A stretch of 64,000 bases of DNA from Tepidiformaceae bacterium (GTDB taxonomy: Bacteria; Chloroflexota; Dehalococcoidia; Tepidiformales; Tepidiformaceae). How positions within the stretch are numbered: the stretch's first letter is position 1; each line of letters opens with the position of its first letter. This document shows positions 3,350-31,412 of this stretch, piece after piece. The position numbers were made by a program, and so were the translations under genes. The notes under the pieces are model-generated. The model did not search any database and was not told the DNA's origin. It saw only the letters and a list, made by a program, of their open reading frames with translations. The stretch is from contig OZ241859.1 in NCBI GenBank assembly GCA_965203115.1, positions 817,964 through 881,963 of the forward strand, written 5' to 3'.

Positions 3350-3358
3350 CGCCGCCGG

Positions 3359-4405: not shown

Positions 4406-4418
4406 CGAACGCCTGCTC

Positions 4419-6058: not shown

Positions 6059-6163
6059 GCTCGCCTCCGGCGCTTCAGGCTACGCCCGAATCGTACACGC
6101 CACCCCCGTACGGGGGCCTTGTATCCTCACGCGAGCGGGGGTAACACCGGAAGGGGAGGAGCG

Positions 6164-7078: not shown

Positions 7079-7087
7079 GGCTGGCCC

Positions 7088-7483: not shown

Positions 7484-7526
7484 GTGTTCCCTGCTCTCTC
7501 TGAAGCCGTGAGCCTACAGAACGCCC

Positions 7527-8192: not shown

Positions 8193-8193
8193 G

Positions 8194-11825: not shown

Positions 11826-11988
11826 GCGCGCCCTCCTTGCGCTGCCGGGGGCGCCCGATCGGTCGGAACCTGGGGAGAAAGGGTGAGGCCGGCTCAGCGT
11901 CTGTTCGCTGAACCCCTGCCGGGCAGGCACGTCGAACTCCGGCGCCTCTGCGCCGCACTCGTACTTGCTGCCGAAGCTGTTACCTTCA

Positions 11989-12072
11989 CGCCGCTTCCCT
12001 ACGCTCGCATTACCGAGATCAGGTTCCTGGGGTGGTCCTCGCGGATCTCAGCCTTTCGGCCCCCCCGGCGGC
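11989..12072 (-). promoter_or_regulatory. TPP (THI-box) riboswitch
   Basis: The minus strand reads cgccgggggggccgaaaggCUGAGAuccgcgaggaccaccccaggAACCUGAUCucgGUAAUgcgAGCGUAGGGAagcggcg. It contains the conserved CUGAGA and ACCUGAUC...GUAAU...AGCGUAGGGA elements and a closing P1 (CGCCG/CGGCG). It lies upstream of the ykoF-like/thiXYZ-like operon. Confidence 0.85.
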
Positions 12073-12222
12073 AGATTCCGTATCCGGAATTTGCACCCTC
12101 CACGCTAGGCGCGGCCTTCCCCTGCGTCAACCGCCGCCCCGCCGCCTGACCCTGTACGCGCATGGCGGTATACTCGCGTGGCTTTAGCGATTCCATCCTC
12201 AGGCAATCACAGGGAGGCCCCA

Positions 12223-15369: not shown

Positions 15370-15445
15370 TGGTACGCCAGAGAGGATTCGAACCTCTGAC
15401 CTCTACCTCCGCAGGGTAGCGCTCTATCCACTGAGCTACTGGCGC
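15370..15445 (-). tRNA. tRNA-Arg, anticodon read as GCG
   Basis: The reverse complement is gcgccagtagctcagtggatagagcgCTACCcuGCGgaGGTAGaggtcagaggttcgaatcctctctggcgtacca. It folds as a cloverleaf with U33 before GCG, and CCA is encoded. Confidence 0.85.
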
Positions 15446-15453
15446 ACGTTTTC

Positions 15454-15541
15454 TGGTGCCGAAGGTGAGATTTGAACTCACACGCCCGCAAGGGGCACTA
15501 CGCCCTGAACGTAGCGCGTCTGCCTGTTCCGCCACTTCGGC
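15454..15541 (-). tRNA. tRNA-Leu (anticodon CAG), long variable arm
   Basis: The reverse complement is gccgaagtggcggaacaggcagacgcgCTACGuuCAGggCGTAGtgccccttgcgggcgtgtgagttcaaatctcaccttcggcacca. This is close to the canonical bacterial Leu-CAG pattern. Confidence 0.9.
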
Positions 15542-15637
15542 GCCATCGACCATTATCTTCCGGCGCCCGCTCGCCTTCAAACCGCGCCCCGCGCGCTGGC
15601 GGATGAGGTGGGTCGGCTCTAGACTCGGAAGCGCGTT

Positions 15638-15714
15638 GGGCGGTTAGCTCAGATGGTTAGAGCGCGTCGTTCACACCGACGAGGCCACTGGTTCGAGTCC
15701 AGTATCGCCCACCA
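15638..15714 (+). tRNA. tRNA-Val (anticodon CAC)
   Basis: gggcggttagctcagatggttagagcgCGTCGuuCACacCGACGaggccactggttcgagtccagtatcgcccacca. CCA is encoded. Confidence 0.9.
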
Positions 15715-16264: not shown

Positions 16265-18157
16265 TCAGTTGCCCCCGCCGGAGGCGGCGGCTGGCGGCGG
16301 GTCGCTGCGGACGACGAGCGGGGTGAGCGGGGGCAGGCCGCCGGCGAACAGCTCGGCGAAGGGGCGATTCACGGAGTCCGGCGCGCCCGTGGTGTACGAG
16401 ACCCACTCGCCCTCGTTCAGCGCCCAGGCGGCGGACAGGGCGTGCTCGCGCGCGCACTCGGCCAGCCCCTCCACGCCGCCGCCCTCGTAGAGCACGAGGC
16501 TGAAGCCCCCGGCGACCTCGCCCCGCAGGCAGCCGGACCAGTCCGCGGGCGTGGCGAGCGCGCCCACCGGGTCCTCGCTCGCCGGTCCCTCGCTCGCCGC
16601 AACCAGCGGCGTGAGCGAGGGCACGCCCTCGGGGTAGAGCGCCGCGAAGGGCTCGTTGACGAAGCCCGGCGCTTCGGGGAGGTAGGCGACGTAGCGGCCC
16701 TCGTGCAGGGCGTAGAGGCCCCGCACGCCCCGGCTCTCCGCGCAGGCCGCCAGCTCCTCGACGCTCCCGCCCTCGAAGACGAGGAGGCTGAAGCCCGCCG
16801 CCAGGGCGCCCTTCAGGCAGTGCCCCCAGGACTCCTCGGCGGTGACCTCCAGAGCCACGCGGTAGACGCGCGTGCGGCTGCCGTCCGCCGACGTGACGGT
16901 CACGGTGATCTCCGGGACGCCATCGAGCGCGACCTGGTGGCCCGCGGTCCGCCGGTGGGTATCGGGCGGCTCGACCACGACGGTGGTCCGCCGCTGCGCC
17001 GCCTCGGCGGTCACGGTGGTCGTCGTCACCCCCTCGCCGGGTACGCCCGCGTACTCCGTGCGCAGCGGCGAGAACGCGCCGATCGCGACGCCCTCCAGCG
17101 CGAGCGAGGCGAGGCGCGCGTCGATGGCGTCGGGCATGTTGTAGGTGTAGACCTTGCCGTCGTTCGCGTCTGCGACGTACATGAGGGCGCCGTCGGACCA
17201 GATGCCGCGCGGGCTGTTGTTGCCGACGCGGCCGAGCTCCGTGAAGTCCTCGTCCCCGACCCGCTCGAGGCTGGCTCCCTCACCTGCCGCTTCAACCTCC
17301 TCGCGGGCAGGGAGGCGGTAGGCGAAGAGGCGCGGGGGACTCGAGGGGTCGGAGACCCAGAGCGTGACGCCGTCGGACCAGATGCCCCGGGGGGAGCCGT
17401 TGGCGGGGTCGAGCGCGTACTCGGCGAGGAGGGCGCCGCTCTCGAGGTCGTAGGCGAAGACGGCGTTGCGGCGTTCATCGAGGACCCACATGGTCTTGCC
17501 GTCGGACCAGATGCCACGGGCGTCGGCGTTGCGCTCGCCGAGCTCGATGTCACGGTCCGCGAGGCGCTCGCCGCTGGTGAGGTCGTAGGCGAAGAGGCGC
17601 TCGCGGCCGCTGTCGCCGACCCACGCGCGCCCCTTGCCATCGGACCAGATGCCGCGGGGCGCGCGGTTGCGCTCGTCCAACTCGAACTCGCGCTCCTCGA
17701 CGCGCTCACCCGTCTTCAGATCGTAGACGTAGGCGGCGTCGGCGGCGCCGTCGGCGTTGTGGAGGAGCCAGAGCACTGCCCCGTCGGACCACATCCCGGT
17801 AGGCGTGCCGTGATCACCGTCCAGCGCCTCGATGTCGTGCTTCGCGGTCCACTCGAAGTCGGCCTCGCTCGGCCGGGGAGGGGCCGTGATGGCGGGCCCG
17901 ACCGGCGGCTGTGGCTGGTCCGGCGGCTCCGGGTCCACGTTGTTCTCCGGGGGGTCCGGCGGCTCCGGGTCCACGTTGTTCTCCGTGTTCTCGGTGTTCT
18001 CGGTGTTCTCGGTGTTCTCGGTGTTCTCCGGGTGGTCCGGATGCGCGAACGCCTGCTGGGGCAGCAGCAGGGCCAGGCCGAGGGCCGCCGTCGCAAGCGC
18101 GAGCAGCAGGGCCGGAGCGGGGGAACGCCGGGAGAGGAAGGAGGAGGCCCGCCGCAC
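16265..18157 (-). CDS. Secreted multi-domain repeat protein (signal peptide, acidic ENT/PEPP linker, five GIWSDG repeats, cadherin-like beta-sandwich, two paired-Cys C-terminal domains)
   Basis: GTG start at 18157 with RBS gggagg. The signal peptide is ...ALLLALATAALGLALLLPQQAFA. Five roughly 45-50-aa repeats are centred on (P)RGIWSDG..(L/M)WV.D....(F/Y)AY.L. The segment LASLALEGVAIGAFSPLRTEY...ITVTVTSADGSRTRVYRVAL is cadherin-like. Two homologous C-terminal modules run W..CL(K/R)G...GFSL(L/V)..EGG.VE.LA.CA. Confidence 0.8.
   Translation of the reverse strand: MRRASSFLSRRSPAPALLLALATAALGLALLLPQQAFAHPDHPENTENTENTENTENTENNVDPEPPDPPENNVDPEPPDQPQPPVGPAITAPPRPSEADFEWTAKHDIEALDGDHGTPTGMWSDGAVLWLLHNADGAADAAYVYDLKTGERVEEREFELDERNRAPRGIWSDGKGRAWVGDSGRERLFAYDLTSGERLADRDIELGERNADARGIWSDGKTMWVLDERRNAVFAYDLESGALLAEYALDPANGSPRGIWSDGVTLWVSDPSSPPRLFAYRLPAREEVEAAGEGASLERVGDEDFTELGRVGNNSPRGIWSDGALMYVADANDGKVYTYNMPDAIDARLASLALEGVAIGAFSPLRTEYAGVPGEGVTTTTVTAEAAQRRTTVVVEPPDTHRRTAGHQVALDGVPEITVTVTSADGSRTRVYRVALEVTAEESWGHCLKGALAAGFSLLVFEGGSVEELAACAESRGVRGLYALHEGRYVAYLPEAPGFVNEPFAALYPEGVPSLTPLVAASEGPASEDPVGALATPADWSGCLRGEVAGGFSLVLYEGGGVEGLAECAREHALSAAWALNEGEWVSYTTGAPDSVNRPFAELFAGGLPPLTPLVVRSDPPPAAASGGGN
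17917..18029. repeat. In-frame coding tandem repeats: 36-nt unit x2, then 9-nt unit (gtgttctcg) x5
   Basis: ggtccggcggctccgggtccacgttgttctcc occurs at 17917 and 17953. gtgttctcg/gtgttctcc occurs five times across 17985-18029. These encode ENNVDPEPPD x2 and (ENT)5. Confidence 0.9.
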
Positions 18158-18308
18158 GGCTAGCCTCCCGGCGGGGGAGGGGGAAGGGTGAGGGCGAAAG
18201 GTTCGGAGGGGCGTCGCCCGCGCGGGTTCGGGGGCAACGCGAGCCGCCGGACCCAGGCCCGATCCGTTCGAGCGACAGGAGTCATGCCCGGGTATCCCAC
18301 GATCACCA

Positions 18309-19541
18309 TCACCGGTGCGTCACGCGCCGCGCTTGACTCCTGCTCGCCTCCTTGCGGCTCAGTCGGTAGCGCGTGATGCCGGCAGCGAGCGTGGCGATGG
18401 TAACGACGAGGGCGATCATTCCCGCGGACACGCCTGCGTCCTGGCCGTTGACCAGTCCGGCGTTGCCTGTGTCCGGGACGGCAGGGGCTTCGGCGCTGGC
18501 GGCCACGATGGTGAGGGTTGCCGTCGCGACCCGGTCTTGCACGCCGCCGCCCAGCCCCACGGTGCCGCAGGGCGCCACGCCGTCCTCCGGATAGTCCCCC
18601 TCGGGGCCGGCCCAGCACGAGATCGCGACCAGTTCGTGGTCGCCGGCCGGCAGATCGTCGGGCAACACCAACGTCGCGGTGAACGCGCCGTCGGGCGTGA
18701 TGCCCGGAGGGTCGATGTGGATGTGCTCGGCGATCCACTGGCCCGATTCAGAGTACCTGCCGGGATGGAGCGAACTCGACTCGGGCTCGACGCTCGCCAC
18801 GCCTGCAATCGGCACGCCGCCGATCGTGATGGTCGAGCTGTAGATGAAGGAGCCTTCCTCTTCCACCCGGAAACCGGAGCCCTCGACCGTGATGGTGTCG
18901 CCCGGCCGCGCCTCGCTCACGCTCAGGGTCAACTGCGCTCGCGGTTCCTCGTCGTCGCCCTCCGCCCGGGCTGAGCCGGGCAGAATGGTGAGGGTTGCGG
19001 TTGCAACGCGGTCCCTGACGCCGCCGCCGAGGCCAACCGTGCCGCAGGGCGCGACGCCGTCCTCGGGGTAGTCCCCGTCGGGCCCGGCCCAACACGAGAC
19101 CGCGACCAGGTCGTGGTCGCCGGCCGGCAGATCGTCGGGCAGCACCAACGTCGCGGTGAACGCGCCGTCGGGTGTGGTGCCCGGAGGGTCGATGTGGATG
19201 TGCTCGGCGATCCACTGGCCCGATTCAGAGTACCTGCCGGGATGGAGCGAACTCGACTCGGGCTCGACGCTCGCCACGCCTGCAATCGGCACGCCGCCGA
19301 TCGTGATGGTCGAGCTGTAGATGAAGGAGCCTTCCTCTTCCACCCGGAAACCGGAGGCCTCAACCGTGATGGTGTCGCCCGGCCGCGCCTCGCTCACGCT
19401 CAGGGTCAACTGCGCTCGCGGTTCCTCGTTGTCGCCCTCCGCCCGGGCTGAGCTGGCAGGGACCGTCAGCGCCGCGGTCAGCATCGCGGCCAAGGCCAGC
19501 AGCCAGGTCAGGACGCGGGCTGGCCGCACCGGTAGTCGCAT
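18309..19541 (-). CDS. Secreted/surface protein with two tandem 159-aa domains and a C-terminal sorting-signal-like tail
   Basis: ATG at 19541 with RBS aggagag. The signal peptide is MRLPVRPARVLTWLLALAAMLTAALTVPASSARA. The C-terminus is AVPDTGNAGL...VSAGMIALVVTIATLAAGITRYRLSRK, that is an LPxTG-like motif followed by a TM helix and a basic tail. Confidence 0.8.
   Translation of the reverse strand: MRLPVRPARVLTWLLALAAMLTAALTVPASSARAEGDNEEPRAQLTLSVSEARPGDTITVEASGFRVEEEGSFIYSSTITIGGVPIAGVASVEPESSSLHPGRYSESGQWIAEHIHIDPPGTTPDGAFTATLVLPDDLPAGDHDLVAVSCWAGPDGDYPEDGVAPCGTVGLGGGVRDRVATATLTILPGSARAEGDDEEPRAQLTLSVSEARPGDTITVEGSGFRVEEEGSFIYSSTITIGGVPIAGVASVEPESSSLHPGRYSESGQWIAEHIHIDPPGITPDGAFTATLVLPDDLPAGDHELVAISCWAGPEGDYPEDGVAPCGTVGLGGGVQDRVATATLTIVAASAEAPAVPDTGNAGLVNGQDAGVSAGMIALVVTIATLAAGITRYRLSRKEASRSQARRVTHR
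18499..19452. repeat. 477-bp tandem duplication (x2) inside the CDS
   Basis: The landmark cccgggctgagc occurs at 18965 and 19442, an offset of 477. Positions 18702-18879 are identical to 19179-19356. The flanks toward the low-coordinate side of each unit are clearly more diverged. Confidence 0.9.
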
Positions 19542-19643
19542 ACGTACTCTCCTGTCGTAGCCGTGTGACTGAATCGCATTTTCCTGCACTGGCCGGCAAC
19601 CGTGGGTGTGCGTCCGTGTAGGTCTTTGTGCAGTTGAGTATGG

Positions 19644-19845
19644 GCGATCCACGGATGAACTCAGGGCGAAGTCTTGCCTCGATTCAATGAAGCAGTGATG
19701 AATTCCGCCCCGAACGCTAGATTCATCCCCACACAGGCCCGTTCCCGGGGGGGTGACGAGTTGGAGAACGCCGACCAACGGCCCCCGGGAGCGGAGCCCC
19801 CGGGAGAGCGCCCGCTCCCTGACCGACGCGCCCTACGCCGTGATC
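19644..19845 (+). repeat. Copy A of the conserved intergenic module plus a decayed 5' stub of a kinase paralog
   Basis: It aligns to 21381-21669. The ATG is replaced by TTG, and about 83 nt are missing between two GGAGA microhomologies. Similarity stops at 19845, just before the stop of the minus-strand oxidoreductase gene. Confidence 0.8.
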
Positions 19846-19861
19846 GCCAGGGCCACTCTCT

Positions 19862-21235
19862 TCATGGTGACAAGTCTCCTCTCTGGGACTGTCCTCCAAC
19901 TTTCAGCAGGCCCAGGGCCTCTTCAGCCGCGGCAAGGCCGCTGGCCAGGGCTCCGTTGACCAGGGGAACTCGCGTGTAATCGCCCGCCAGGAAGAGGTTG
20001 GGGATTTCCTGTCCGAGCTCGCGGCGGCTGTTCGCCACCGCCTTGAACATCCCCGGCGGCCCCTTGCACACCGCGATCTTCCACCGGTAGACGCGCGTGA
20101 ACAGCCCGTCGTCGTCGCCCGGAAAGGCCGAACCGGGCGGCGGGTTTCGGCGAATGTCCCGCAGCAACTCGCGCTTGACCTCCTCATCGTCCAGTTCCAG
20201 CAGTTGCTTTGCGCGCTCGCGCCCCGCGATCAGGTCCAGCATGCTCTTGCCCGGTGGCACGCAGCCCGGCAGGTTGATGGACCGGTCCAGCACCAGGGGA
20301 GTCTCGTCCTGCGGGTAGATTGCGCCGTGCCAGCCGGGGGGAAGCGGCGGACGGTCCAGTCCCATCACCAACCGGCACGCGGAGGAGTAGGTGACGTTGC
20401 CCAGCGTCTCCCGGACCCTTTGTGGAAGGCCGGGGATGATCTCCAGCGCGACCGGAGCGGGAACCGCGCAGATAACCGCGTCGGCCTCGATGGTCTCGCC
20501 GTCGATCACCACGCCCGCCACGCCCCCCTCCCCGACGAGTACCTCCCTCACAGGCGTCGAAACGCGGGTGACGTCTGCGCACGCATCGCGCAGGGCGCGG
20601 GCAAGTGCGCCCGCCCCCTTCTCCGGCTGGATGAGCTTGTGCGGTCGCAGAAGCGTGTTGGCCAGGTACCCCCTGATGTACGCCTGGCTGGAGGAAGCGA
20701 CATAGTCCAGCACGCCATTCTCGACGAACCCGCTGAGCGTGACCCGGAGAGACTCGGACGCGCCCGTCTTCTCCAGGTACTCGCCGAAGGTCTCATCTCC
20801 GTCGATCTCGGCCAGGCGGCTGTTGCTGGCGAACGTCAGGTAGTCGGCCTGGCGAAAGACCTTATGGATCAGCTTCATCGCCCCCCAGGACAGCAGTCCC
20901 ATGTTCGCAAACGCGCTCAGGTTGCTGAGCACGCCGGGAATGGACGGAGCAGCCGTGGTTACATGCCACCGTCCGTCTTTGTACCAGCCGAGCTTCTGGA
21001 TCGAGGGGACCAGTGGCACGCCTAACTCCTCGCAGATGCGAAACACCGCGTCGTAGGAGTAGCAGAAGAAGTCCACCCCCGTATCGATGAGACACCCGTC
21101 CACCTCGTCGGCCGCAAGCCGCCCACCGACATGATTCTCGGACTCCAGGAGCAAAGCATCGACACCACGCTTCTTCAACGTGTATGCCGCGCCCAGCCCG
21201 GCTGCGCCCCCGCCGACTATGATGACCCGCTTCAT
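19862..21235 (-). CDS. FAD-dependent oxidoreductase (amine oxidase/phytoene desaturase-like family)
   Basis: The dinucleotide-binding N-terminus is MKRVIIVGGGAAGLGAAYTL and the C-terminus is FLAGDYTRVPLVNGALASG. The start was chosen at ATG 21235; the track start at 21328 is the alternative. Confidence 0.8.
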   Translation of the reverse strand: MKRVIIVGGGAAGLGAAYTLKKRGVDALLLESENHVGGRLAADEVDGCLIDTGVDFFCYSYDAVFRICEELGVPLVPSIQKLGWYKDGRWHVTTAAPSIPGVLSNLSAFANMGLLSWGAMKLIHKVFRQADYLTFASNSRLAEIDGDETFGEYLEKTGASESLRVTLSGFVENGVLDYVASSSQAYIRGYLANTLLRPHKLIQPEKGAGALARALRDACADVTRVSTPVREVLVGEGGVAGVVIDGETIEADAVICAVPAPVALEIIPGLPQRVRETLGNVTYSSACRLVMGLDRPPLPPGWHGAIYPQDETPLVLDRSINLPGCVPPGKSMLDLIAGRERAKQLLELDDEEVKRELLRDIRRNPPPGSAFPGDDDGLFTRVYRWKIAVCKGPPGMFKAVANSRRELGQEIPNLFLAGDYTRVPLVNGALASGLAAAEEALGLLKVGGQSQRGDLSP

Positions 21236-21320
21236 GTCCGAAGCCGCGGGGACGGCGCGTCCGTGCCGCCGGAGCCGCGGAGGTTCTTCAGGAAAGTCAG
21301 TGCGCGCATACAGGTGTCCC

Positions 21321-21475
21321 TCGGCCACGTTTGCCCGGCCCGTGGGGCGTACTCGCGAACTGCAACCGGCGAATCGTCTAGCGATCGATGAATGAACTCA
21401 GGGTGAAGTCTTGCGCCGATTTGATGAAGTAGTGATGAATTCCGCCCAGAACGCTAGAATCATCCCCGGGCAGGC
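21321..21475 (+). repeat. Copy B of the conserved intergenic module (between the oxidoreductase and the fused kinase/regulator gene)
   Basis: It aligns over its full length with copy C (25430-25585) and over its right half with copy A. Stop codons occur in several frames. Confidence 0.85.
21422..21460 (+). promoter_or_regulatory. Putative promoter with 11-bp-phased direct repeats (TGATGAA-N4-TGATGAA) overlapping the -35 position and a TAGAAT -10-like hexamer
   Basis: TGATGAA occurs at 21422-21428 and 21433-21439, and TAGAAT at 21455-21460, 15 nt after the second repeat. The RBS aggggagg and ATG 21502 follow. GATGAA-N5-GATGAA and TAGA(A/T)T are retained in copies A and C. Confidence 0.4.
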
Positions 21476-21501
21476 ACGTACGTTCCCAGGGGAGGTGACG
21501 A

Positions 21502-23874
21502 ATGGAGAACGCCGACCAACGGGCACCGGGAGCGGAGCCGCCGGGAGACCGCCTCTCCCGCCTCAGCCAGGCCAGCCTCCGCATCAACGAGAGCCTGGAC
21601 GTGGACACGGCCCTCCAGGCCGTGATGGAGAGCGCCCGCTCCCTGACCGACGCGCCCTACGCCGTGATCATCACCCTGGACGCGTCGGGCGCGGTCGAGG
21701 ACCACCTCGTCCTGGGCCTCGAACCCGACGACGTGGAGCGGCTGTGGCAGGCGCCCCAGGGGAAGCTCTTCTTCGAGTACCTCAACGCCCTGCCGGGTCC
21801 GCTGCGGGTGGGACACCTGGAGGAGTTCACGGGGTCCATCGGTCTCGGGGAGTTCCGCTCGCCCGTCAAGCTCACCGCCTTCATGGCGGCCCCGATCCTG
21901 CACCAGGGGGTGCGCTCGGGCCACATCTTCGTGGGCAGCGTCGAGCCGGGACGGGAGTTCTCCCGGGAGGACGAGGAGACGCTCGTGATGTTCGCCTCCC
22001 AGGCGGCCCTGGTCATCGCCAACGCCCGCACGCACCGCGAGGAGCGACAGGCGCGGGCGGACCTCGAGACGCTGGTCAACACCTCGCCCGTGGGCGTCGC
22101 CGTCTTCGACGCCCGCACGGGGGCGCCGATCTCCTTCAACCGCGAGGCCATGCGCATCGTGGACGGGCTGCGGGACGAGGGCCAGAAGCCGGAGGACCTC
22201 CTCGAGGTGCTGACCTGCGTGCGTGCGGATGGCCGCGAGGTCTCTCTCGCGGAGCTGTCGCTGGCGGAGCTGTTCAGGGAGGGGGAGACGGTGCGGGCGG
22301 AGGAGATCGTGCTGCGCGTTCCGGACGGACGCAGCATCACCATCCTGCTCAACGCGACCCCGATCCGCGCCGAGGACGGCGAGCTGGCTTCCTTCGTCGT
22401 CACGCTCCAGGACATGAAGCCGCTCGAGGAGCAGGAGCGGCTGCGGGCCGAGTTCCTGGGCATGGTGAGCCACGAGCTGCGCATGCCCCTGACCTCCATC
22501 TGGGGCTCGGTGATGGCGATGTTGGAGTCGCCGGAGGCCGACCCAGCCGTGCTGCGCCAGTTCCAGCGGATCGTCCTCGACCAGGTCGGCGGCATGCGCA
22601 CCCTGATCGACGACCTGCTGGACGTGGCCCGCATCGAGACGGGCGCGCTGCCGGTGGACCCGGAGCCGGCGGAGGTGGCCGTGCTCGTGGACCGGGCCAG
22701 GAACGCTTTCGCCAGCGCCGGGGGCCGGAACGAGCTCGCCCTCGAGGTGGAGCCGGACCTGCCCCTGGTGATGGCCGACCGCAGGCGCATCGTCCAGGTC
22801 ATCGGCAACCTCCTGTCCAACGCGGCGCGGCACTCTCCGGAGTCGTCCGTCATCCAGGTGTCCGCCGTGCGCGAGGGCGGTCACGTCGAGGTCTCGGTGA
22901 CCGACCAGGGCCGGGGGATACCCGCCGAGGACCTGCCGCTGCTGTTCCGCAAGTTCTCCCGCCGGGAGGACAGCGACGTGGGGGGCGACACCGGCCTCGG
23001 GCTCGCCATTTGCAAGGGCATCGTGGAGGCCCACGGGGGCCGCATCCGGGCCGAGAGCGACGGGCCCGGCCTGGGAGCGCGGTTCGTCTTCACCCTGCCG
23101 GTGGTCGAGGGGGCCGGTCCGGCCCGCCGCCCCGCCGCCCGCGAGCGGGACGAAGGTCAGTCGGCGGGAACGGTCCTGGTGGTGGACGACGACCCCGTCG
23201 TGCTCAGGTCGGTGCGGGAGATCCTCGCCGGCGCGGGCTTCCGCGCGGTGGTGACCGCCGACCCGGAGGAGGCGCTGGCGCTGGTGGCGGAGCACAGCCC
23301 CCGCTTGGCCCTGCTGGACCTGATGCTGCCGGAGCGGGACGGGGTGGAGCTGATGGGGGACATCCTCGCCGCCACCCGCATCCCCGTGATCTTCCTCTCG
23401 GCCTACGGCAGGGAGGAGGTGGTCGCCGGGGTGCTGGAGCAGGGCGCCACCGACTACATCGTCAAGCCCTTCTCGCCCACGGAGCTGGTGGCCAGGGTGC
23501 GGGCGGCCCTGCGCCGCGCCGGGGAGCCGCAGCGCCTCGCTCCCGAGGAGCCCTTCGTGCTGGGCGACCTGCGCATCGACTACGCCACCCGCAGGGTGAC
23601 GGTCTCGGGACGGCCGGCGCCGCTAACGCCCACCGAGTTCGATCTGCTGGCGACGCTCTCGATGGAGGCGGGGCGGGTGGTGCCCCATGACCGCCTGCTG
23701 AGGCGGGCGTGGAGCCCGGGCAAGCCGGGGAACCTGCGCGTGCTGCGCACGCACCTCAAGCACCTGCGCCGCAAGCTGGGCGACGACGCCAGCAACCCCA
23801 CCTACATCTTCGCCGAGCCCCGCGTCGGCTACCGGATGCCGGCGGGCGAGACGGCCCCGGCCGGCGAGCGCTGA
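21502..23874 (+). CDS. Soluble fused two-component protein: GAF - PAS - HisKA/HATPase_c - REC - OmpR-type winged-helix DNA-binding domain
   Basis: 790 aa with no TM segment. The H-box is SHELRMPLTSI and the G-box GLGLAICKGIVEAHGG. The REC domain reads VLVVDDDP...LLDLMLPERDG...KPF. The wHTH reads LTPTEFDLLATL...LRTHLKHLRRKL...VGYRM. Confidence 0.9.
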   Translation: MENADQRAPGAEPPGDRLSRLSQASLRINESLDVDTALQAVMESARSLTDAPYAVIITLDASGAVEDHLVLGLEPDDVERLWQAPQGKLFFEYLNALPGPLRVGHLEEFTGSIGLGEFRSPVKLTAFMAAPILHQGVRSGHIFVGSVEPGREFSREDEETLVMFASQAALVIANARTHREERQARADLETLVNTSPVGVAVFDARTGAPISFNREAMRIVDGLRDEGQKPEDLLEVLTCVRADGREVSLAELSLAELFREGETVRAEEIVLRVPDGRSITILLNATPIRAEDGELASFVVTLQDMKPLEEQERLRAEFLGMVSHELRMPLTSIWGSVMAMLESPEADPAVLRQFQRIVLDQVGGMRTLIDDLLDVARIETGALPVDPEPAEVAVLVDRARNAFASAGGRNELALEVEPDLPLVMADRRRIVQVIGNLLSNAARHSPESSVIQVSAVREGGHVEVSVTDQGRGIPAEDLPLLFRKFSRREDSDVGGDTGLGLAICKGIVEAHGGRIRAESDGPGLGARFVFTLPVVEGAGPARRPAARERDEGQSAGTVLVVDDDPVVLRSVREILAGAGFRAVVTADPEEALALVAEHSPRLALLDLMLPERDGVELMGDILAATRIPVIFLSAYGREEVVAGVLEQGATDYIVKPFSPTELVARVRAALRRAGEPQRLAPEEPFVLGDLRIDYATRRVTVSGRPAPLTPTEFDLLATLSMEAGRVVPHDRLLRRAWSPGKPGNLRVLRTHLKHLRRKLGDDASNPTYIFAEPRVGYRMPAGETAPAGER

Positions 23875-24227
23875 GCGCGGCCCCAGCGCCGCAACGATTC
23901 CGCGCGCTCCCTCGGCTTCGGCGGCTTCACCCTCCCCTCCCCGTAGGGGTGTTCCGCTTGCTCGCGGCGCCCATGCGCCACTGAGGCGCGCGCGCGGGCC
24001 ACACCCGTTGGGGAAGAGCTAGACCCTCCTCCTGTGGTGAATCCTCTGTCTTGGCATGGCGCGGCTCTTCCACGGAACTCATCGGCTGCCGCCATCGCCC
24101 GACCGTCCATCTGTGGGGCCTTCGGTTCCGTTTGCTGTCGGTGTACGGCATATCTGGGCTCAGGCGTGGTAGACCCCAAAAGCAAACTGATCCGATGAGC
24201 CGTTCTGGACTTTCGTCAGCGTGCCTC

Positions 24228-25370
24228 TTAACGGGATGCTTGAGCCGCCATCGCCGCCAGCGTTAGCTCCTGCGCCCGCACGAGTTCGTCCTCCGTGAAG
24301 CACGAGAATACCGCCCTGGTGCCCTCGGCAATAATGCGCAGAGCAGCGGGAGGCATCGCCTCCATGGCAGCGGGGTCGGAGGAGAGGAGGGGCAGGAACT
24401 CGGAGTTCTCCACGGCGTAGTTGGCTATACAGTTGGCGGACTCCGCAGTGAGTTCGCCGAGCACGCCCTCGATGGCTGCTACGTAGAGCGACGCGATGGT
24501 CGCGGGTGAGAGACAGGCCGCTGCGGGAGCGGCAGCCCTGACTCCGTCCAGCGGCTTGGCGGTGAGCAGAGTATTCATCTGCTGCTCGGAGAGAATCTCA
24601 CGCATGCACGCTTCTTCGGCATGAGGAAGCACAGCGACAAGGTCCGCCCCCGTCAACGAGGAGGCGCTGTCGATGGCGGCGTACGCCTGTAGGCCGAGTC
24701 GGAAACTCTCGGCATCCGTCAGGCAGTCCCAGTAGGCAAGGATGAATTCGTGCCTCTTACTGGTGCTGGTTGTCTCTTCTCCCTCCCACTCAACTCCCAT
24801 CTGGATGTAGGCGTTTTCAGGGTGTTGGAGCGAGAGGTCCGTGATGCACCTGCGACTGTCCTCGGAGCGTCCACCAGCGAAGGCATCGTTGGCCGCGACA
24901 ACGAACAGCACGACGTTCTCCGATTCCATGCAGCCGACCAGGGTGGCGGTGGCTTCGGAGCTGCCGCTCTGCAGGAGCGGTGCGGCGAGGAGTACCGCGT
25001 AGAGGGTTTCACCGACGGCGGCTCGGATGCAGTCCGTCTCGTCAGTGGAGAGCCGGTCCATCAGGTCCTTGCCGGTGGACGACTCGTCGATCACGAAGTC
25101 GCGCATCGATACTGTCGATTGCGCCATATCCGGCGTCGGGGACGGCGCAGGGGTAGGCTCCGGTGTCGGGCTCGGCGTGGCAGTGGGTGGAAGCGGCGTG
25201 GCGGTGGGCGTAGGGGTAGGCTCCGGTGTCGGGCTCGGCGTGGCGGTGGGCGGAAGCGGCGTGGCGGTGGGCGCAGGATCAGGTTCGCCCGCGCAGGCGG
25301 CGCTAACGGCAATCAGCGTGGCGAAAGCGACTACCAGGATAACGAGTCTCGGTTTGACTGCGTGGGTCAT
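24228..25370 (-). CDS. Lipoprotein with Pro/Thr-rich linker and repeated Cys-containing helical modules (hypothetical)
   Basis: ATG at 25370 gives the lipobox signal MTHAVKPRLVILVVAFATLIAVSAACAG. A PT linker follows. Recurring motifs include ...ETDCIRAA, SRRCITDL, EEACMREI, SANCIANY and VFSCFTED. By eye the gene has more A/T-ending codons than its neighbours. Confidence 0.7.
   Translation of the reverse strand: MTHAVKPRLVILVVAFATLIAVSAACAGEPDPAPTATPLPPTATPSPTPEPTPTPTATPLPPTATPSPTPEPTPAPSPTPDMAQSTVSMRDFVIDESSTGKDLMDRLSTDETDCIRAAVGETLYAVLLAAPLLQSGSSEATATLVGCMESENVVLFVVAANDAFAGGRSEDSRRCITDLSLQHPENAYIQMGVEWEGEETTSTSKRHEFILAYWDCLTDAESFRLGLQAYAAIDSASSLTGADLVAVLPHAEEACMREILSEQQMNTLLTAKPLDGVRAAAPAAACLSPATIASLYVAAIEGVLGELTAESANCIANYAVENSEFLPLLSSDPAAMEAMPPAALRIIAEGTRAVFSCFTEDELVRAQELTLAAMAAQASR
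25149..25274. repeat. 63-nt coding tandem repeat x2 (TATPLPPTATPSPTPEPTP[T/A]P)
   Basis: Units start at 25149 and 25212 (aggggtaggctccggtgtcgggctcggcgtggc...). Confidence 0.9.
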
Positions 25371-25429
25371 CGTTGTATCCGTATTTCTGGCAAATGCTCG
25401 GGGCAGGCATTGGCGGCCGGGACCGCCCA

Positions 25430-25585
25430 TCGGCCACGGTTCCCCGGCCCCGTGGGGCGTACAGGCAACCTGCAACCGGCGAATAGTCTAGCGATCGCTG
25501 AATGAACTCAGGGTGAAGCCACACCCTGATTCGATGAAGTGACGATGAATTCCGCCCCGAACGCTAGAATCATCCCCGGGCAGGC
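25430..25585 (+). repeat. Copy C of the conserved intergenic module
   Basis: It aligns with 21321-21475. Homology ends at gggcaggc, where a helicase fragment begins. Confidence 0.85.
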
Positions 25586-25588
25586 CTC

Positions 25589-26254
25589 GAGCTCGTGGAG
25601 TTCCCGACGGCCTGCTGGTTTGAAACCCACTACAGCGTCTACACCATGAGGCAGGCGTCACGGCACTCCTGGCGCATCGGGCAGACGGACCCCGTCCAGG
25701 TCGTCTTCATGGCCTACCGGAACACCCTTCAGGCGGACGCGCTCAAGCTCGTGGCGCAGAAGCTCCAGTCCTCCCTCGCCGTCGAGGGGGAGTTGCCGGA
25801 GGACGGCCTCGCCGCCTACGGGGACGACGGCGACGACCTGATGCTCCACGGCAAGATCGTCATGAACCTCGGCGGGGAGCTTTGGGCCTTCGTGAAGCCG
25901 AGGCGGCTCGGCGCGCTTCTAGCCTCGGACTCCGGCGTGTGGCTGGAGCGCGACCCGGACACGGTGCGCGAGCCCGACCTCGCCTTCACGGCGGCCGAGC
26001 GGCTCCCGCTCGATGCCTGGAACACGGGCTACTCCGAGGTGGTCCCTGACTTGGTGGTCGAGGTCGCATCTCCCAGCGACAGCCGTCGCGAACTCAACGA
26101 TAAGGCGCAGATGTGGCTGCGCCACGGTCCGGCTTCTGAGCTGCCGACGCGCCGTCGAGTCGTGGGCGCCCCATGTCGCCATGCCCCGTGCGAGGCACCG
26201 ACAGGTTTGCGTCGGGAGCCCGCACCGGCAACGGTGCGAACACGCACGCTGTAA
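25589..26254 (+). pseudogene. Chimeric remnant: C-terminal fragment of an SNF2/DEAD-like helicase fused to a degraded Uma2-family (DUF820) endonuclease
   Basis: ACWFETHYSVYTMRQASRHSWRIGQTDPVQVVFMAYRNTLQADALKLVAQKLQ is a helicase motif VI region. It is followed by ...REPDLAFTAAERLP...VVPDLVVEVASPSDSRRELNDKAQMWLRHG, an Uma2 PD-(D/E)xK core. There is no N-terminal helicase part, and the tail is out of frame. Confidence 0.6.
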
Positions 26255-26299: not shown

Positions 26300-26803
26300 C
26301 TAGCGCCCCCGGTTGTGCTCCATCGTCGCGTGGTTGGCCAGGATCTTCGAGGTCACGGCCCGCAGGGTCTCAAGCTCCGCCGGGCTGACGCCCGCCAGCA
26401 GCCTGGTCTCGTGCTGGGCGACGCGCTCGCGAAGCTCTTCCGTGAGCTCCTTGCCCTGGGGCGTCAGCCTCAGGAGCACGACCCGACGATCGTCGGTGCG
26501 CCGCCGCCGCCGCAGAAGCCCGCGGTCGACGAGCTTCGAGACGAGCCGGCTGATGCGCGGGGCATCGGCCGGAAGCACGTTGGCGAGCTGCGTCACCGTC
26601 CACTCGTTCTGCTCGGAGAACGACTTCAGGATCGAGAACTCCATGTTGATGAGGCCCGCCGGCGCGATTTGCCGTTCGGACCCCTTCACCACGGCGCTCA
26701 CAAGTTGCGAGACGCCCTCCGCTAGTTCAGGAGCCGACGACCCTTCATCCGAAAGGTCCCCTGCCCGTTCTGTATCAGCTGTATTAGTTATGTTCGTAGA
26801 CAC
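26300..26803 (-). CDS. MarR-family transcriptional regulator
   Basis: 167 aa with a winged HTH (WTVTQLANVLPADAPRISRLVSKLVDRGLLRRRRRTDDRRVVLLRLTPQG). Confidence 0.85.
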   Translation of the reverse strand: MSTNITNTADTERAGDLSDEGSSAPELAEGVSQLVSAVVKGSERQIAPAGLINMEFSILKSFSEQNEWTVTQLANVLPADAPRISRLVSKLVDRGLLRRRRRTDDRRVVLLRLTPQGKELTEELRERVAQHETRLLAGVSPAELETLRAVTSKILANHATMEHNRGR

Positions 26804-27098: not shown

Positions 27099-27962
27099 TC
27101 AGCTTCGGGAGGCACTGGTCACGCGGTCGCCGGCCGCCTCGCGAGCGGTCGCGTCGCCGTTCGCCGCCGGCCCGATCAGGCTGACCGCCAGCGCCTCCGT
27201 CACCGGGTCGCGGTACACGGCCGAACGCACCCCGAAGGCCGACTCGATCGTCTCCGGGGTCAGCACCTCCTCCGGCGGCCCCTCCGTGACGACCGCGCCG
27301 TTGCTGATCAGCACGAGCCGGTCGCAGTAGCGGGCGGCCAGGTTCAGGTCGTGGATGGCCGCGATGGCCGTGAGCCCGTCGTCGACGATCCGGCGCACCA
27401 GCCCGAGGATCGTGAGCTGGTGCAGGATGTCGAGGTTCGAGGTCGGTTCGTCCAGCAGCAGGATGCGGGGCTGCTGGGCCAGCGCCCGCGCGAGGAACAC
27501 GCGCTGGCGCTCGCCACCCGACAGCGTCTCCAGCGTCCGCTGCTCGAACTGGTCCGTCTCGGTGAGCCGCATCGCCTCCCGGGCGATGCGGTCGTCGGCC
27601 TGTCCCTCCACCTGGAACCGTCCCAGGTGCGGGTAGCGCCCCATCAGGACCAGCTCGAAGGCCGTGAAGCCCTGCGTGTAGGGCGCGATCTGCGGGACCA
27701 GCGCGAGCATCGCCGCGACATCCCGCGCGGGCATGGCGGAGAGGTCGGCGCCCTCCAGCCAGACCGCCCCCTCCTGGTGCCGGATCACCCCGGACAGCGT
27801 CCGCAGCAGGGTCGACTTGCCCGCCCCGTTCGGGCCGATCAGCCCGACGAATTGCCCCCGCTCGGCGCGCATATCGACGCGGTCCAGCAGCGTCTTCGCC
27901 TCGACGCTGAAGGAGACGCCGTGTGCGTCAACCGGTGCGGGGGAGTTGCCGTTCGCGTTCAT
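27099..27962 (-). CDS. ABC transporter ATP-binding protein (FecE/BtuD family)
   Basis: ATG at 27962 (MNANGNS...). It has Walker A GPNGAGKST, signature LSGGERQR and Walker B LLLDEP. Confidence 0.9.
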   Translation of the reverse strand: MNANGNSPAPVDAHGVSFSVEAKTLLDRVDMRAERGQFVGLIGPNGAGKSTLLRTLSGVIRHQEGAVWLEGADLSAMPARDVAAMLALVPQIAPYTQGFTAFELVLMGRYPHLGRFQVEGQADDRIAREAMRLTETDQFEQRTLETLSGGERQRVFLARALAQQPRILLLDEPTSNLDILHQLTILGLVRRIVDDGLTAIAAIHDLNLAARYCDRLVLISNGAVVTEGPPEEVLTPETIESAFGVRSAVYRDPVTEALAVSLIGPAANGDATAREAAGDRVTSASRS

Positions 27963-27970
27963 GTCGTCAC

Positions 27971-29188
27971 CTACTCGGCCAGGCTGAAGGATTCCGCCGG
28001 CGGATCGGGGAAGTCGTCCGGCCACATCATGCGGGCCAGGTCCTCCGCCCCGCGAATGTTCCAGTACGAGAGCGTCGTGAAGTGCTTGCTCTCCACGATG
28101 AAGACGGCCTCGTTCTTGATCGCGGGAAGCTCCGCCAGCGCTTCGCGCTCCAGCAGGCTCTGCCGGAACTCCTCCGCGCCGAACGCCACCGGCTGGGGAA
28201 TGATGATGATGTCCGGGGCCATGGCGATCACGCCCTCGAGGCTGGTCGTCTGGTTGCCCGTGACGCCCGCCTCCGCGGCGGCGTTGAGGCCACCGGCGGC
28301 GAGGATGACCCCGCCCTCGGTCGACCCCTCGCCCGCCACCCAGAGCGTGTCCGAGTACTGCGTGAGGGCGAGCACGCGCGGCTTCGGCTCCTTCGCGCTC
28401 GTGATCGCCACGAGCGCGTCGTAGCGCGCCTCAACCTCGTCGGCGAACTCGGAGGCGCGCTCCTCCTCGCCGTAGATGTAGCCCATGAGCAGGATCGCGT
28501 TGATGCGCGCCTCCGATCCTTGCTCCAGCTCCGTCTGGATGACGGGGATGCCCGCCCGGATCAGGGCCTCCACGACCTCGATCGGGAACCAGGGGCTCGT
28601 TACCACGATGTCCGGCGACTGCGCGATGATGACCTCCGGATCCCGCGAAATCTCCGCCTTCTCCTGCACCAGGTGCGCGACGTTCGAGTACGTCTCGTCC
28701 TTCGACACGGCGCCCACGGCCACGAGCCGCTCGCTCGGCACGATCGCCAGCGTCATCTCGTCGTGCCCGATCGAGGCCGTGATGATCCGCAGCGGCTTGG
28801 CGGGGATGCTGACGACCCCGTTCAGCCCCTCGACCTCGCGTGGCCAGCCCATGTTCGTGGGGTCCACGATCCCGCGCACGCCCTCGAGCGAGCGCGCCGC
28901 CGGCGTCGGCTCCGGCGTCGCGACGGGCGTTGGCTCCGGCGTCGCTTCGGGTGTCGCCGCCGGCGCCTCGGTTGACGCTTCGGTGGGCGCCGCGGTCGGC
29001 GCTTCCGTCGGTTCGGGCGTCGCCGCGGGGGTCGCCGCTTCCGTGGCGACCGGCGTCGGTTGAGGCGCTTCTTCGTCGTCGGAGCAGGCGGCAAGAGCCA
29101 GCCCGAGGGCGAAGAAGGCCACTGGGACGACCAGGAGGCGAAGTGGTCTGAAGGGCACGAGTTCTCCTTTTGACCGGCGTGCGTTCAC
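27971..29188 (-). CDS. ABC substrate-binding lipoprotein (BtuF/FecB cluster A family) with long Ala/Thr/Pro/Glu linker
   Basis: The lipobox is FFALGLALAACSDD, followed by a low-complexity ATPEPTEAPT linker and a periplasmic-binding-protein type 2 body. Confidence 0.85.
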   Translation of the reverse strand: MNARRSKGELVPFRPLRLLVVPVAFFALGLALAACSDDEEAPQPTPVATEAATPAATPEPTEAPTAAPTEASTEAPAATPEATPEPTPVATPEPTPAARSLEGVRGIVDPTNMGWPREVEGLNGVVSIPAKPLRIITASIGHDEMTLAIVPSERLVAVGAVSKDETYSNVAHLVQEKAEISRDPEVIIAQSPDIVVTSPWFPIEVVEALIRAGIPVIQTELEQGSEARINAILLMGYIYGEEERASEFADEVEARYDALVAITSAKEPKPRVLALTQYSDTLWVAGEGSTEGGVILAAGGLNAAAEAGVTGNQTTSLEGVIAMAPDIIIIPQPVAFGAEEFRQSLLEREALAELPAIKNEAVFIVESKHFTTLSYWNIRGAEDLARMMWPDDFPDPPAESFSLAE

Positions 29189-30261
29189 AGGGCGTACACC
29201 TGCCGCTTGTTCTTGATGAGCAGGGCGATGAAGAACGGCGCTCCCACGAACGCCGTGAGGATTCCCACGCGGAGCTCCGCCGGCTGGATGACCATCCGGG
29301 CGACGGTGTCGGCGACCATCACGAAGACGGCGCCGCCCAGCGCGCTCATGGGGATGAGCACGCGGTTGTCCGGCCCCAGCACGAGCCGCAGCACGTGCGG
29401 GACCACCAGCCCCACGAACGCGATCGTGCCGCTCACGGCAACCGCCGCGCCCGTGGCCAGCGCCGATATCGCGAGCAGCGCCACGCGCGTCACGCCCACG
29501 CGCACGCCCATCGAGCGCGCTTCGTCGTCGCCCAGCATCAGCAGGTTCAGGTCGCGCGCCATGATCAGGAGCACGACCGTGCTCCCCAGGATGAGGGGCC
29601 CGGCGATGCGCACATGCTCCCAGGCGCGGGCGTCGAGGCCTCCCGCCAGCCAGAACAGGACCTCCCGGAGCGCCTCGTTGTCGGGCAGGAAGATGATGAT
29701 CGCGGAGACGATCGCCCCCAGGAACGCGTTCACGGCGACGCCCGCCAGCAGCAGCGTCGCCATCGAGAAGTGCCCCCCGACGACGGCGATGCCGTAGACG
29801 AGGAAGGCCGCCGCGATCGCCCCCGCGAAGGCGAAGACCGGCAGCGCCAGGAAGAAGAGCCCGGTGAGCCCCCCCGCGATCGCGATGACGGCTCCCAGCG
29901 CCCCGCCCGCCGAGACGCCGATGATGCCCGGGTCCGCCATGGGATTGCGGAACAGGCCCTGCATCGTCGCGCCCGCGACCCCCAGCGCCATCCCCACCGC
30001 CGCCCCGACGATGATCCGCGGCAGCCGGATCTGCTCGATCACGAGCTGCTCCGTCCGCCCGAAGTCGGGCGTGGCGAACCCGATCGCGGATAGCACGATC
30101 CAGGCGACGTCGCCGACGGAGATGTCGACCGGCCCGAGGCTGAGGGAGATCAGGCCGACCACGATCACGAGCGCCAGCAGGATCGTCCCGCCGATCGCCA
30201 GCCGGACGCCGACGCCCATCCGGCGGTAGCTGCGCAGGGTCGTGAGTGCGCCGGCCTGCAA
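29185..30261 (-). CDS. FecCD/BtuC-family ABC permease
   Basis: 358 aa, multi-TM, FecCD-like. The track start is TTG 30261, which directly abuts the terminator U-tract, so an internal ATG (30219, MGVGV...) is an alternative start. Confidence 0.85.
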   Translation of the reverse strand: MQAGALTTLRSYRRMGVGVRLAIGGTILLALVIVVGLISLSLGPVDISVGDVAWIVLSAIGFATPDFGRTEQLVIEQIRLPRIIVGAAVGMALGVAGATMQGLFRNPMADPGIIGVSAGGALGAVIAIAGGLTGLFFLALPVFAFAGAIAAAFLVYGIAVVGGHFSMATLLLAGVAVNAFLGAIVSAIIIFLPDNEALREVLFWLAGGLDARAWEHVRIAGPLILGSTVVLLIMARDLNLLMLGDDEARSMGVRVGVTRVALLAISALATGAAVAVSGTIAFVGLVVPHVLRLVLGPDNRVLIPMSALGGAVFVMVADTVARMVIQPAELRVGILTAFVGAPFFIALLIKNKRQVYAL

Positions 30262-30344: not shown

Positions 30345-30515
30345 ATGGCGGAGAGATGTCTCCTCTCGTCCAGGCAGGTCTCCTGGCTTACGGGCTGGAT
30401 GTGCGCCGTGCCCTTCCCATCGGTTCCCCGACAGTGGGCGCCGGCTCCGTCTTCCCGATTACAGTGGCGCTACCGCGGCGGAATCTCACCGCCTTCCCTA
30501 TTCTCCCGGGACGGG
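30345..30515 (-). promoter_or_regulatory. Cobalamin (B12) riboswitch
   Basis: The minus strand reads gagaAUAGGGAAGgcGGUGAGAuuCCgccGCGGUAGCGCCACUGUaaucgGGAAG...GGGAAGG...AGCCAGGAGACCUGCC (B12 box at about 30373-30388). It lies upstream of the BtuFCD-like operon. Confidence 0.85.
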
Positions 30516-30621
30516 CACCTGGACGAACAAAGCCATCGCGAGCGTATGGCCGCACCGCTCGCCCGTCAAGGATGTTCGCGAGGACGCCGCGGGGCAGGGG
30601 TCGCGCGGGTCACGACTGCGA

Positions 30622-31326: not shown

Positions 31327-31412
31327 TGGTACCGGGGGAGGGATTCGAACCCTCACGCCTTTCGGCCACGGATTTTAAGTCCGCTGCGTCTGCCAAGTTC
31401 CGCCACCCCAGC
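31327..31412 (-). tRNA. tRNA-Leu (anticodon UAA), long variable arm
   Basis: The reverse complement is gctggggtggcggaacttggcagacgcaGCGGAcuUAAaaTCCGTggccgaaaggcgtgagggttcgaatccctcccccggtacca. Confidence 0.9.

Follow-up and report, generated by a model that had tools for sequence, protein, structure and literature searches.

A non-coding module of 90-180 nt occurs three times in the 64-kb stretch of DNA analysed here (contig OZ241859.1 of the Tepidiformaceae bacterium assembly GCA_965203115.1; "the window" is this whole stretch). By reading 18200-26200 and by use of a repeat finder we found all three copies on the same strand and named them A (19593-19758, +), B (21321-21500, +) and C (25430-25590, +); other loci are L-numbered relatives. 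Copy B, which we predict to be a full divergent promoter-operator, lies between an amine-oxidase-type flavin adenine dinucleotide (FAD) flavoprotein gene on the minus strand (19862-21235; PF01593, E 1.7e-47) and a plus-strand gene, directly downstream, for a 790-aa protein in which a sensor kinase is fused to a response regulator. Copies A and C are orphans with no adjoining regulator gene. Copy A is divergent from a gene for a secreted or surface protein (18309-19541, -), whose ortholog in L004 likewise stands beside an A-type module, and copy C is divergent from a gene for a putative lipoprotein or secreted protein without a Pfam domain (24228-25370, -). An earlier note on this DNA had placed each copy upstream of a minus-strand gene; these three genes agree with that description and are the candidate targets.

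The three copies have a conserved core and differ at their edges

Three copies in one orientation, as described in the earlier note, were recovered as a single repeat family (D2, with members at 19592-19738, 21329-21475 and 25439-25585), by alignment and by nhmmer. The common core was reproduced in a three-way alignment, and the 34-nt core GATGAATTCCGCCCNGAACGCTAGANTCATCCCC has three exact matches in the window where the expected number is 0.00 (100 shuffles). We found that an nhmmer profile of the three copies, when searched against the 64 kb, returned A, B and C only (E 2e-56, 4e-53, 1e-43), the next match having E ~1. The same kind of search had been proposed in the earlier note, and run within the window and its relatives it gave the three window copies and more in close relatives. 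Identity by blastn is 87% over 156 nt for B and C, and 83% over 120 nt for B and A. The module is also A/T-richer than its setting, as had been remarked, with a GC content of 0.51-0.57 against ~0.65-0.75 in the surroundings.

Outside the core the copies agree in pairs, again in line with the earlier description. B and C have ~60 nt more in common on the left of the core (21321-21380 and 25430-25490), and A and B have in common the leader and first codons of the kinase gene. For the latter pair the repeat finder gave two matches: 19762-19812 is 92% identical to 21503-21553 (D13) and 19803-19845 is 100% identical to 21627-21669 (D15). Therefore a relic of the 5' end of a kinase gene (19762-19849, +; 84 nt) is attached to copy A; in it codons ~1-17 are joined to codons ~42-56 across an internal deletion. 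This relic marks copy A as a putative former kinase promoter. Copy C has no kinase relic downstream. The right edge of A lies at ~19758, with weak similarity on the left reaching back to ~19593, and between close relatives (window and ortholog L001) the homology of the B unit begins at ~21249, to the left of 21321.

Two further observations concern the left part of the module, on the side of the minus-strand leader. It holds a GC-rich palindrome of the form CCACGG...CCGTGG, which in C reads GGCCGGGACCG...CGGTTCCCCGGCC (25416-25450). In addition, the 11-mer GGCAACCGTGG of A-type copies (window 19594-19604) is opposite in orientation to that of B-type copies (L001 5687-5697). We considered whether the left part of A is inverted with respect to B-type copies (GGCAACCGTGG versus CCACGGTTGCC) and rejected this: the stretch is partly palindromic and aligns in both orientations, therefore no inversion can be claimed.

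Copy B adjoins the gene for a fused kinase and OmpR/PhoB-type regulator

The gene downstream of B (21502-23874, +) encodes a single polypeptide of 790 aa that we presume to be the cognate regulator. Using Pfam we found the domain order GAF-PAS-HisKA-HATPase_c-REC-Trans_reg_C, with GAF at residues 33-172, PAS at 187-305, Response_reg at E 1.6e-25 and Trans_reg_C at E 4.9e-18. The C-terminal 235 aa, comprising the receiver (REC) and the DNA-binding domain, match MtrA (2gwr, E 5.6e-42) and then KdpE, RegX3 and PrrA, and this part of the protein is a canonical OmpR/PhoB response regulator. No membrane segment was evident in the 790-aa protein on inspection, and it is presumably a cytoplasmic sensor.

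The family of the fusion is very large: of 8,000 scored candidates, at least 7,968 database proteins matched at E ≤ 1e-30, and the top matches include several paralogs encoded on single contigs; the window kinase itself has a 100% database match (P0001). In L003 two such paralogs, of 1001 aa (1660-4665) and 792 aa (6001-8379), stand in tandem on one strand, 1.3 kb apart. A second open reading frame (ORF) of 790 aa in the window (61433-63805) was tried as a paralogous kinase and rejected, having no BLASTP similarity to the first. Full-text searches of the sponge or Dehalococcoidia genomics literature for this fusion-protein family or its sites returned nothing specific.

The core contains phased direct repeats next to a predicted -10 hexamer

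Within the core of copy B we found four GATGAA-like heptamers in direct orientation: S1 (AATGAAC, 21391-21397), S2 (GGTGAAG, 21402-21408), S3 (GATGAAG, 21423-21429) and S4 (GATGAAT, 21434-21440). Measured start to start, S1 and S2 are 11 bp apart, S3 and S4 are 11 bp apart, and S2 and S3 are 21 bp apart (relative starts 0, 11, 32, 43), therefore all four half-sites lie on one helical face. The distal pair S1+S2 (21391-21408, +) is a predicted site for one regulator dimer and would cover the -35 position of the predicted promoter on the minus strand. The proximal pair (21423-21444, +), at the predicted -35 position of the kinase promoter, is made of two 11-bp units, GATGAAG-tagt (S3) and GATGAAT-tccg (S4), each with 7 conserved bp and a 4-bp spacer. 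The other copies have the same four half-sites, at 19654-19660, 19665-19671 (GGCGAAG), 19686-19692 and 19697-19703 in A, and at 25501-25507, 25512-25518, 25533-25539 and 25544-25550 in C. The pattern RTGAA-N6-RTGAA matches five times in the window, against 0.03 expected, and all five matches are inside the three modules.

The predicted -10 hexamer of the kinase promoter in B is TAGAAT (21455-21460, +), with TAnnnT hexamers at the matching place upstream of paralogs; its counterparts are TAGATT in A (19718-19723) and TAGAAT in C (25565-25570). Between the end of the proximal pair at 21444 and this hexamer there is a 10-bp gap, a pho-box-like geometry with comparable spacing in paralogs. The E. 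coli pho box likewise lies 10 bp upstream of the -10. A predicted leader of ~35 nt, with a GGAGGTG ribosome-binding site, would lead to the kinase ATG at 21502, and the gene starts 42 nt past the -10 of B. On the other side, 10 bp outside S1, we infer a -10-like hexamer for the divergent promoter on the minus strand, which is TAGACG in B (21375-21380, -), TAGACT in C (25485-25490) and CATACT in A (19637-19642), and TAAACT, TATACT or TAGACT in relatives.

OmpR/PhoB-type operators are recognized by direct repeats at a period of ~10-11 bp and by a linked gene for a winged-helix regulator of the OmpR/PhoB family. Both are present here, and judged by these sequence criteria the module qualifies as an OmpR/PhoB-type operator-promoter. 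We consider it probable that the module is the divergent promoter-operator of the GAF-PAS-HisKA-HATPase-REC-OmpR fusion-regulator unit, with OmpR/PhoB-type sites, and that it has been duplicated locally.

Phased repeats are found upstream of paralogous kinase genes

For 34 distinct paralogs of the kinase gene we took 200 nt of upstream sequence each and calculated a pooled direct-repeat autocorrelation. Peaks were found at lags 10, 11, 21, 22 and 32 (z = 4.2, 9.8, 8.8, 4.4 and 3.8), and 26 of the 34 upstream regions contribute to this signal. No peak was seen in 98 GC-matched control windows from the same loci, of which 29% contained a match as against 76% of the kinase upstream regions (Fisher p 1.2e-6). 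The lag peaks are thus present upstream of the kinases and missing from the controls, therefore phased direct repeats are specific to the promoters of this regulator family.

The sequence of the half-site varies by paralog and includes GATGAA, GATAAG/GGTAAG, TGTATCA and GGTAAC. The relative L002 (81%) has a diverged version of the module with GATAAA/GGTGAA sites and cAGAAT, and the 72% relatives L008 and L010 have either GATGAAG/GCTAAAC or four GATAAGG/GGTAAGG repeats, followed by TAAGAT or TAGTGT. In a qualitative comparison the recognition helix of the regulator varies among paralogs with differing half-sites; the window protein and its 93% ortholog in L001, which both have GATGAA sites, have the same helix. 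When nhmmer was run upstream of distant kinase paralogs (≤82% identity) only weak matches appeared, in L002, L008 and L089. In sequence the module is restricted to very close relatives, and its architecture, phased repeats plus a -10, is general. In L010 a 21-bp unit, GATAAGGatatGGTAAGGttc, occurs twice (200-245); binding-site repeats appear to grow by tandem duplication.

Structured RNA and other binding factors account poorly for the core

The earlier note had also described an imperfect hairpin. All three copies do have an imperfect inverted repeat, GATGAATTC-N14-GAATCATC; in the related copies elsewhere it is either missing or degenerate, and a folded structure found no support. A structured RNA (a leader, riboswitch or small RNA) transcribed from one strand, which the note had offered as a second reading, would account for a conserved, non-coding, A/T-richer sequence with an inverted repeat, and the left part of B and C, with its short CCACGG...CCGTGG palindrome, would fall in the 5' leader of the minus-strand gene. 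However, we found no Rfam match over the modules, whether at the gathering threshold or with permissive filters at E ≤ 10, and on both strands folding energies could not be told from those of shuffles (z scores of -0.72, plus, and +0.55, minus). RNAalifold on 8 copies returned -6.0 kcal/mol with an unfavourable covariation term of +0.66, a term of low power given that the copies are closely related, and 17 pairs, none of them in the best-conserved S3-S4 block. The bulk of the conserved core also lies upstream of the predicted plus-strand start. We regard an RNA as extremely improbable.

The same inverted repeat raises the possibility that the core is the operator of another factor, either a dimeric repressor on GATGAATTC-N14-GAATCATC or a regulator of the neighbouring MarR or XRE type. 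In A, B, C and L004_A the repeat overlaps the stretch from -35 to -10, the nucleotides that separate S4 from the -10 are unexpectedly conserved, and a MarR gene (26300-26803) and an XRE-like ORF are nearby. Against this, the dyad is degenerate in the kinase-linked copy of L001 (GAGTTATC) and in L001_mid and absent from L004_2 and L001_A, whereas the direct repeats persist in all of them. The feature found family-wide upstream of the kinases is direct-repeat periodicity and not dyad symmetry, and the module travels with the kinase gene rather than with MarR or XRE genes. This suggests that control by another factor is improbable.

Related copies point to duplication of a unit and loss of the kinase gene

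The closest public genomes with the module are Dehalococcoidia metagenome-assembled genomes. In L001, which encodes the 93% ortholog, the module stands at the same place upstream of the kinase gene, and this locus has three copies in all, the other two being an A-type copy at the edge of the contig and an orphan located at 1883-2061. L004 has two orphan copies, one of A-type beside the ortholog of the surface-protein gene and another at 1846-1763. Behind most orphans we found a relic of the kinase 5' end: besides the 84 nt of A there are ~100 nt with a frameshift behind the A-type copy of L004 and ~30 nt behind L001_mid. The presence of these relics behind A and the orphans of relatives shows that the copies arose by duplication of the unit followed by loss of the kinase.

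Two further loci show the arrangement with other sequences. L089 has a weaker match to the module, with GATAAA/GGTAAA-type sites, divergent to an 86-aa gene and a lipoprotein ortholog and followed by ~27 kinase codons. In L090 the lipoprotein and flavoprotein orthologs are divergent to an intact but different kinase paralog with TGTATCA-type repeats. The lipoprotein ortholog is thus beside an orphan module in L089 and beside an intact paralogous kinase in L090. From these arrangements together with the relics, the recurring ancestral unit reads accessory gene(s) <- module -> kinase-regulator, the accessory genes being mostly for secreted proteins; the window copies are duplicates of it, two of which have lost the regulator gene.

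The earlier note had set against its own proposal the case of a pure segmental duplication with no conservation in relatives. We found duplication to be the origin of the copies, and we also found copies, orphan ones included, in at least 3 other genomes. The earlier note went too far in saying that nothing in the standard feature classes accounts for the repeat, since the copies appear to be duplicated promoter-operators whose kinase relics show segmental duplication.

Alternatively, the module could be a small non-autonomous mobile element, like a miniature inverted-repeat transposable element (MITE), or a recombination site, that moves among intergenic regions. Several copies lie within 6 kb, the genes between the modules differ in close relatives, and an imperfect inverted repeat of 21-22 nt, CCGGCGAAT(A/C)GTCTAGCGATC / GAACGCTAGAATCATCCCCGG, flanks the half-sites (21366-21386 / 21449-21469). 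However, this repeat is internal, the homology between copies running past both arms, and no target-site duplication is visible at the copies. Their orientation to the flanking genes is constant, and kinase coding relics are attached to them. The two arms make more sense as a facing pair of GCTAGA(A/C)T -10 regions. Finally, when 185,579 GTDB species representatives, a set outside which the source genome lies, were scanned with a degenerate pattern that fits five known variants, only two relevant genomes matched, once each, and viral contigs gave 0 matches. We consider a mobile element or recombination site a next to negligible prospect.

Three observations in the relatives touch these loci. 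Upstream of the lipoprotein ortholog in L091 (5560-5900), repeated GC-rich palindromes in the style of repetitive extragenic palindromic (REP) sequences (GGGGCGGTTCACGAACCGCCCC-like) take the place of the module. L004 carries at 52-1383 several tandem small ORFs that resemble nitrile-hydratase-leader-type precursors of ribosomally synthesized and post-translationally modified peptides (RiPPs) (...PDGFD..VHE....AHLVLPP...TEAE...V.GG). A RiPP-precursor-like small ORF also lies between the orphan module and the lipoprotein ortholog in L089 (9414-9674).

Conservation of the half-sites and the status of the orphan copies

We compared the conservation of alignment columns in 8 copies from 3 genomes. 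Half-site columns scored 0.90 and inter-site columns 0.78 (Mann-Whitney p 1e-4), a result to be read with the knowledge that the half-sites were chosen after viewing the sequences, so that the test is partly circular. In the ortholog pair of B and the kinase-linked copy of L001 the S1-S4 block is 84% identical, the flanking non-coding DNA 71-75% and the kinase coding sequence 92%.

In addition to this circularity, several observations weigh against the module as a set of working divergent promoter-operators. A sigma-70 and terminator consensus scan of 19400-25800 found no full promoter or terminator; this negative is uninformative, because an activator-dependent promoter would give the same outcome. 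The minus-strand -10 is imperfect in B (TAGACG) and in A (CATACT). The simple model leaves unexplained why TTCCGCCCNGAACGC, which separates S4 from the -10, shows roughly the same conservation as the half-sites. The A-type copy of L001 is without S1 and the putative minus-strand -10. Finally, orphan A and its L004 ortholog are uniformly 82-90% identical over gene, module and relic (module 0.82-0.90, adjoining kinase relic 0.87), with no extra constraint on the orphan detectable, so selection on orphan A is not demonstrable at this divergence.

The last two points also serve the most serious of the alternatives, that only B is functional, as the kinase promoter, and that A and C are neutral, slowly decaying leftovers of segmental duplication and deletion, in an accessory region prone to rearrangement, with no regulon. 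The kinase relics prove an origin by duplication and deletion, and the region is rich in debris and varies among close relatives. However, the four half-sites are intact in both A and C despite 13-17% overall divergence. Among the orphans of relatives the plus-side -10, which is useless there, is damaged or lost in several (CAAAAC in L001_mid, deleted in L001_A, lost in L004_2), yet the half-sites persist, and in L004_2 they have been amplified to TGATGAAGTAG x3 (L004 1741-1775, -). Each orphan is placed 5' of a gene for which a promoter is required, and the pairing of lipoprotein gene and module recurs in a genome (L089) whose lipoprotein ortholog is just 86% identical. On balance neutral leftovers have a real but minority chance of being the explanation.

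The bidirectional control region with a small regulon that the earlier note had suggested is thus favoured as regards the promoter-operator, on account of the phased repeats, the -10, the adjoining gene of OmpR/PhoB type and the architecture upstream of paralogs. The part that fared less well is the action of A and C as a regulon, copy A being no better conserved than its neutral flanks. Since A and C keep all four half-sites, the regulator encoded beside B would control their genes too, and we give about even chances to its also controlling the surface-protein and lipoprotein genes.

A proposed model for control by the fused regulator

Transcription starts, binding by the 790-aa protein, the sign of regulation and any present activity of the orphans are what we infer in the following model. 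Judging by the domain order, the GAF and PAS domains would sense a cytoplasmic signal, the kinase would autophosphorylate, and the phosphoryl group would pass within the molecule or the dimer to the REC domain. The geometry of the sites and the precedent of the family suggest that the winged helix would then bind S3-S4 as a head-to-tail dimer that replaces the -35, and that this dimer would activate the TAGAAT promoter of the regulator's own gene, which would amount to autoregulation. A further dimer would occupy S1-S2, at a distance of two helical turns, and control the divergent gene through the opposite TAGAC(T/G)-type -10. Copy B kept the regulator gene and copies A and C lost theirs, A retaining the 84-nt relic and C now abutting debris.

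Neighbouring genes and the accessory region

The surface-protein gene beside A contains a 477-bp internal tandem duplication (18500-19276; 300 nt aligned at 91%), therefore its product has two near-identical domains; a hydrophobic anchor is found at the end. The lipoprotein gene beside C has a 63-bp tandem repeat (89%; 25131-25256) that encodes a Pro/Thr-rich linker, and a paralog of this lipoprotein is encoded in the same genome (P0128). Abutting copy C, where a kinase gene would be expected, is a stretch of chimeric gene debris (25595-26254, +) made of a helicase-C-terminus-like segment, so labelled from a reading of the translation, and a truncated Uma2, matched over residues 84-178 only. 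This debris ORF fits deletions and rearrangements across the region.

Another gene (16265-18157, -) encodes a 630-aa secreted protein with a cadherin-like domain, five '(P)RGIWSDG' propeller-like repeats and, close to the N-terminus, a repeat rich in ENT/ENN; on the DNA level the L004 ortholog shows 90% identity. Three tRNA genes (15373-15711) lie just before the variable block at 16-26 kb, which holds the secreted-protein genes, the debris and the modules, and a fourth lies at 31330-31412. The variable block may be an accessory island adjoining tRNA genes. Further away, a cobalamin riboswitch (30356-30537, -; 104.8 bits) stands upstream of a three-gene ATP-binding cassette (ABC) importer (27099-30261, -) whose genes, by reading of the translations, look like those of a permease, a periplasmic binding protein and an ATPase in a BtuFCD-like arrangement. 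A thiamine pyrophosphate (TPP) riboswitch (11979-12076, -; 65 bits) scores above the gathering score.

Discussion

Our data suggest a testable operator motif, two pairs of 11-bp GATGAA repeats, and a candidate local regulon that comprises the regulator and three other genes. The host group is uncultured and related to Dehalococcoidia, and our literature searches found no described regulation in it and nothing on this protein family or its sites. Interest lies in this motif, in the size of the uncharacterised regulator family and in the visible route from promoter duplication to orphan operators: growth of the regulon would be legible as a promoter-operator unit duplicated, a redundant regulator deleted and an operator kept before its target gene. 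For annotation, the module and its paralog-specific variants could be used to predict, in metagenome-assembled genomes, the targets of the fused kinase-regulators that make up this very large family.

Among known systems the module most resembles the PhoB pho box and the class II-type promoters of the OmpR/PhoB family (PhoB, M. tuberculosis PhoP, GlnR and PmrA). PhoB sites consist of two 11-bp direct repeats, each of 7 conserved bp plus 4 (PMC2648988), and the tandem repeats of the module are likewise 7 + 4. Activation in the OmpR/PhoB family involves tandem head-to-tail dimers, single or as tetramers or hexamers, on boxes that overlap the -35 (PMC11825685). In the module the proximal pair would overlap or stand in for a -35, its end being ~10 bp from the predicted -10, a geometry like that of the pho box, and the second pair, two helical turns upstream, suggests a tetramer of tandem dimers. 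The output domain of the fusion protein is a Trans_reg_C winged helix, as in other OmpR/PhoB regulators. The half-site, however, is GATGAA-like and not CTGTCAT. Unlike PhoB-type systems, the regulator here is fused to its own kinase, and the module would serve two predicted divergent promoters and has three local copies, two of them without an adjoining regulator gene.

The fusion itself recalls the hybrid two-component systems (HTCS) of Bacteroides, as defined in PMC11253607. As in those proteins, the sensor kinase, receiver and DNA-binding output are joined in one polypeptide, here of 790 aa. The family is also strongly expanded within genomes, and its paralogs adjoin accessory genes that they presumably control. 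The Bacteroides proteins are membrane-bound, combine a periplasmic glycan sensor with an AraC-type helix-turn-helix (HTH), and control adjacent polysaccharide utilization loci (PULs). In contrast, the 790-aa protein has a GAF-PAS N-terminus and an OmpR-type output, with no periplasmic sensor and no AraC HTH; its neighbours are genes for secreted and surface proteins and a flavoprotein rather than Sus-like genes, and the phylum differs. By its domain make-up the linked regulator would work like an HTCS while standing outside that family. A wider proposal is that fused GAF-PAS-kinase-receiver-OmpR proteins form a large, undescribed system of Dehalococcoidia-type Chloroflexota parallel to Bacteroides HTCS/PUL, in which paralog-specific portable modules control secreted and surface cassettes, recombination shuffles the cassettes, and orphan operators extend the surviving regulon. 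We think this rather unlikely and put it forward as speculation.

Finally, the locus may be compared with the growth of regulons by duplication, in which autoregulated two-component operons gain orphan operators through duplication of their promoters. As in that case, the regulator's own promoter has the predicted sites and further genes carry copies of those sites. Unlike the general concept, the extra sites here are duplicates of the whole promoter that still have relics of the regulator coding sequence, so the evolutionary route is directly legible. The module is most probably an ordinary kind of regulatory DNA that has been duplicated, and it adds no new class of element.

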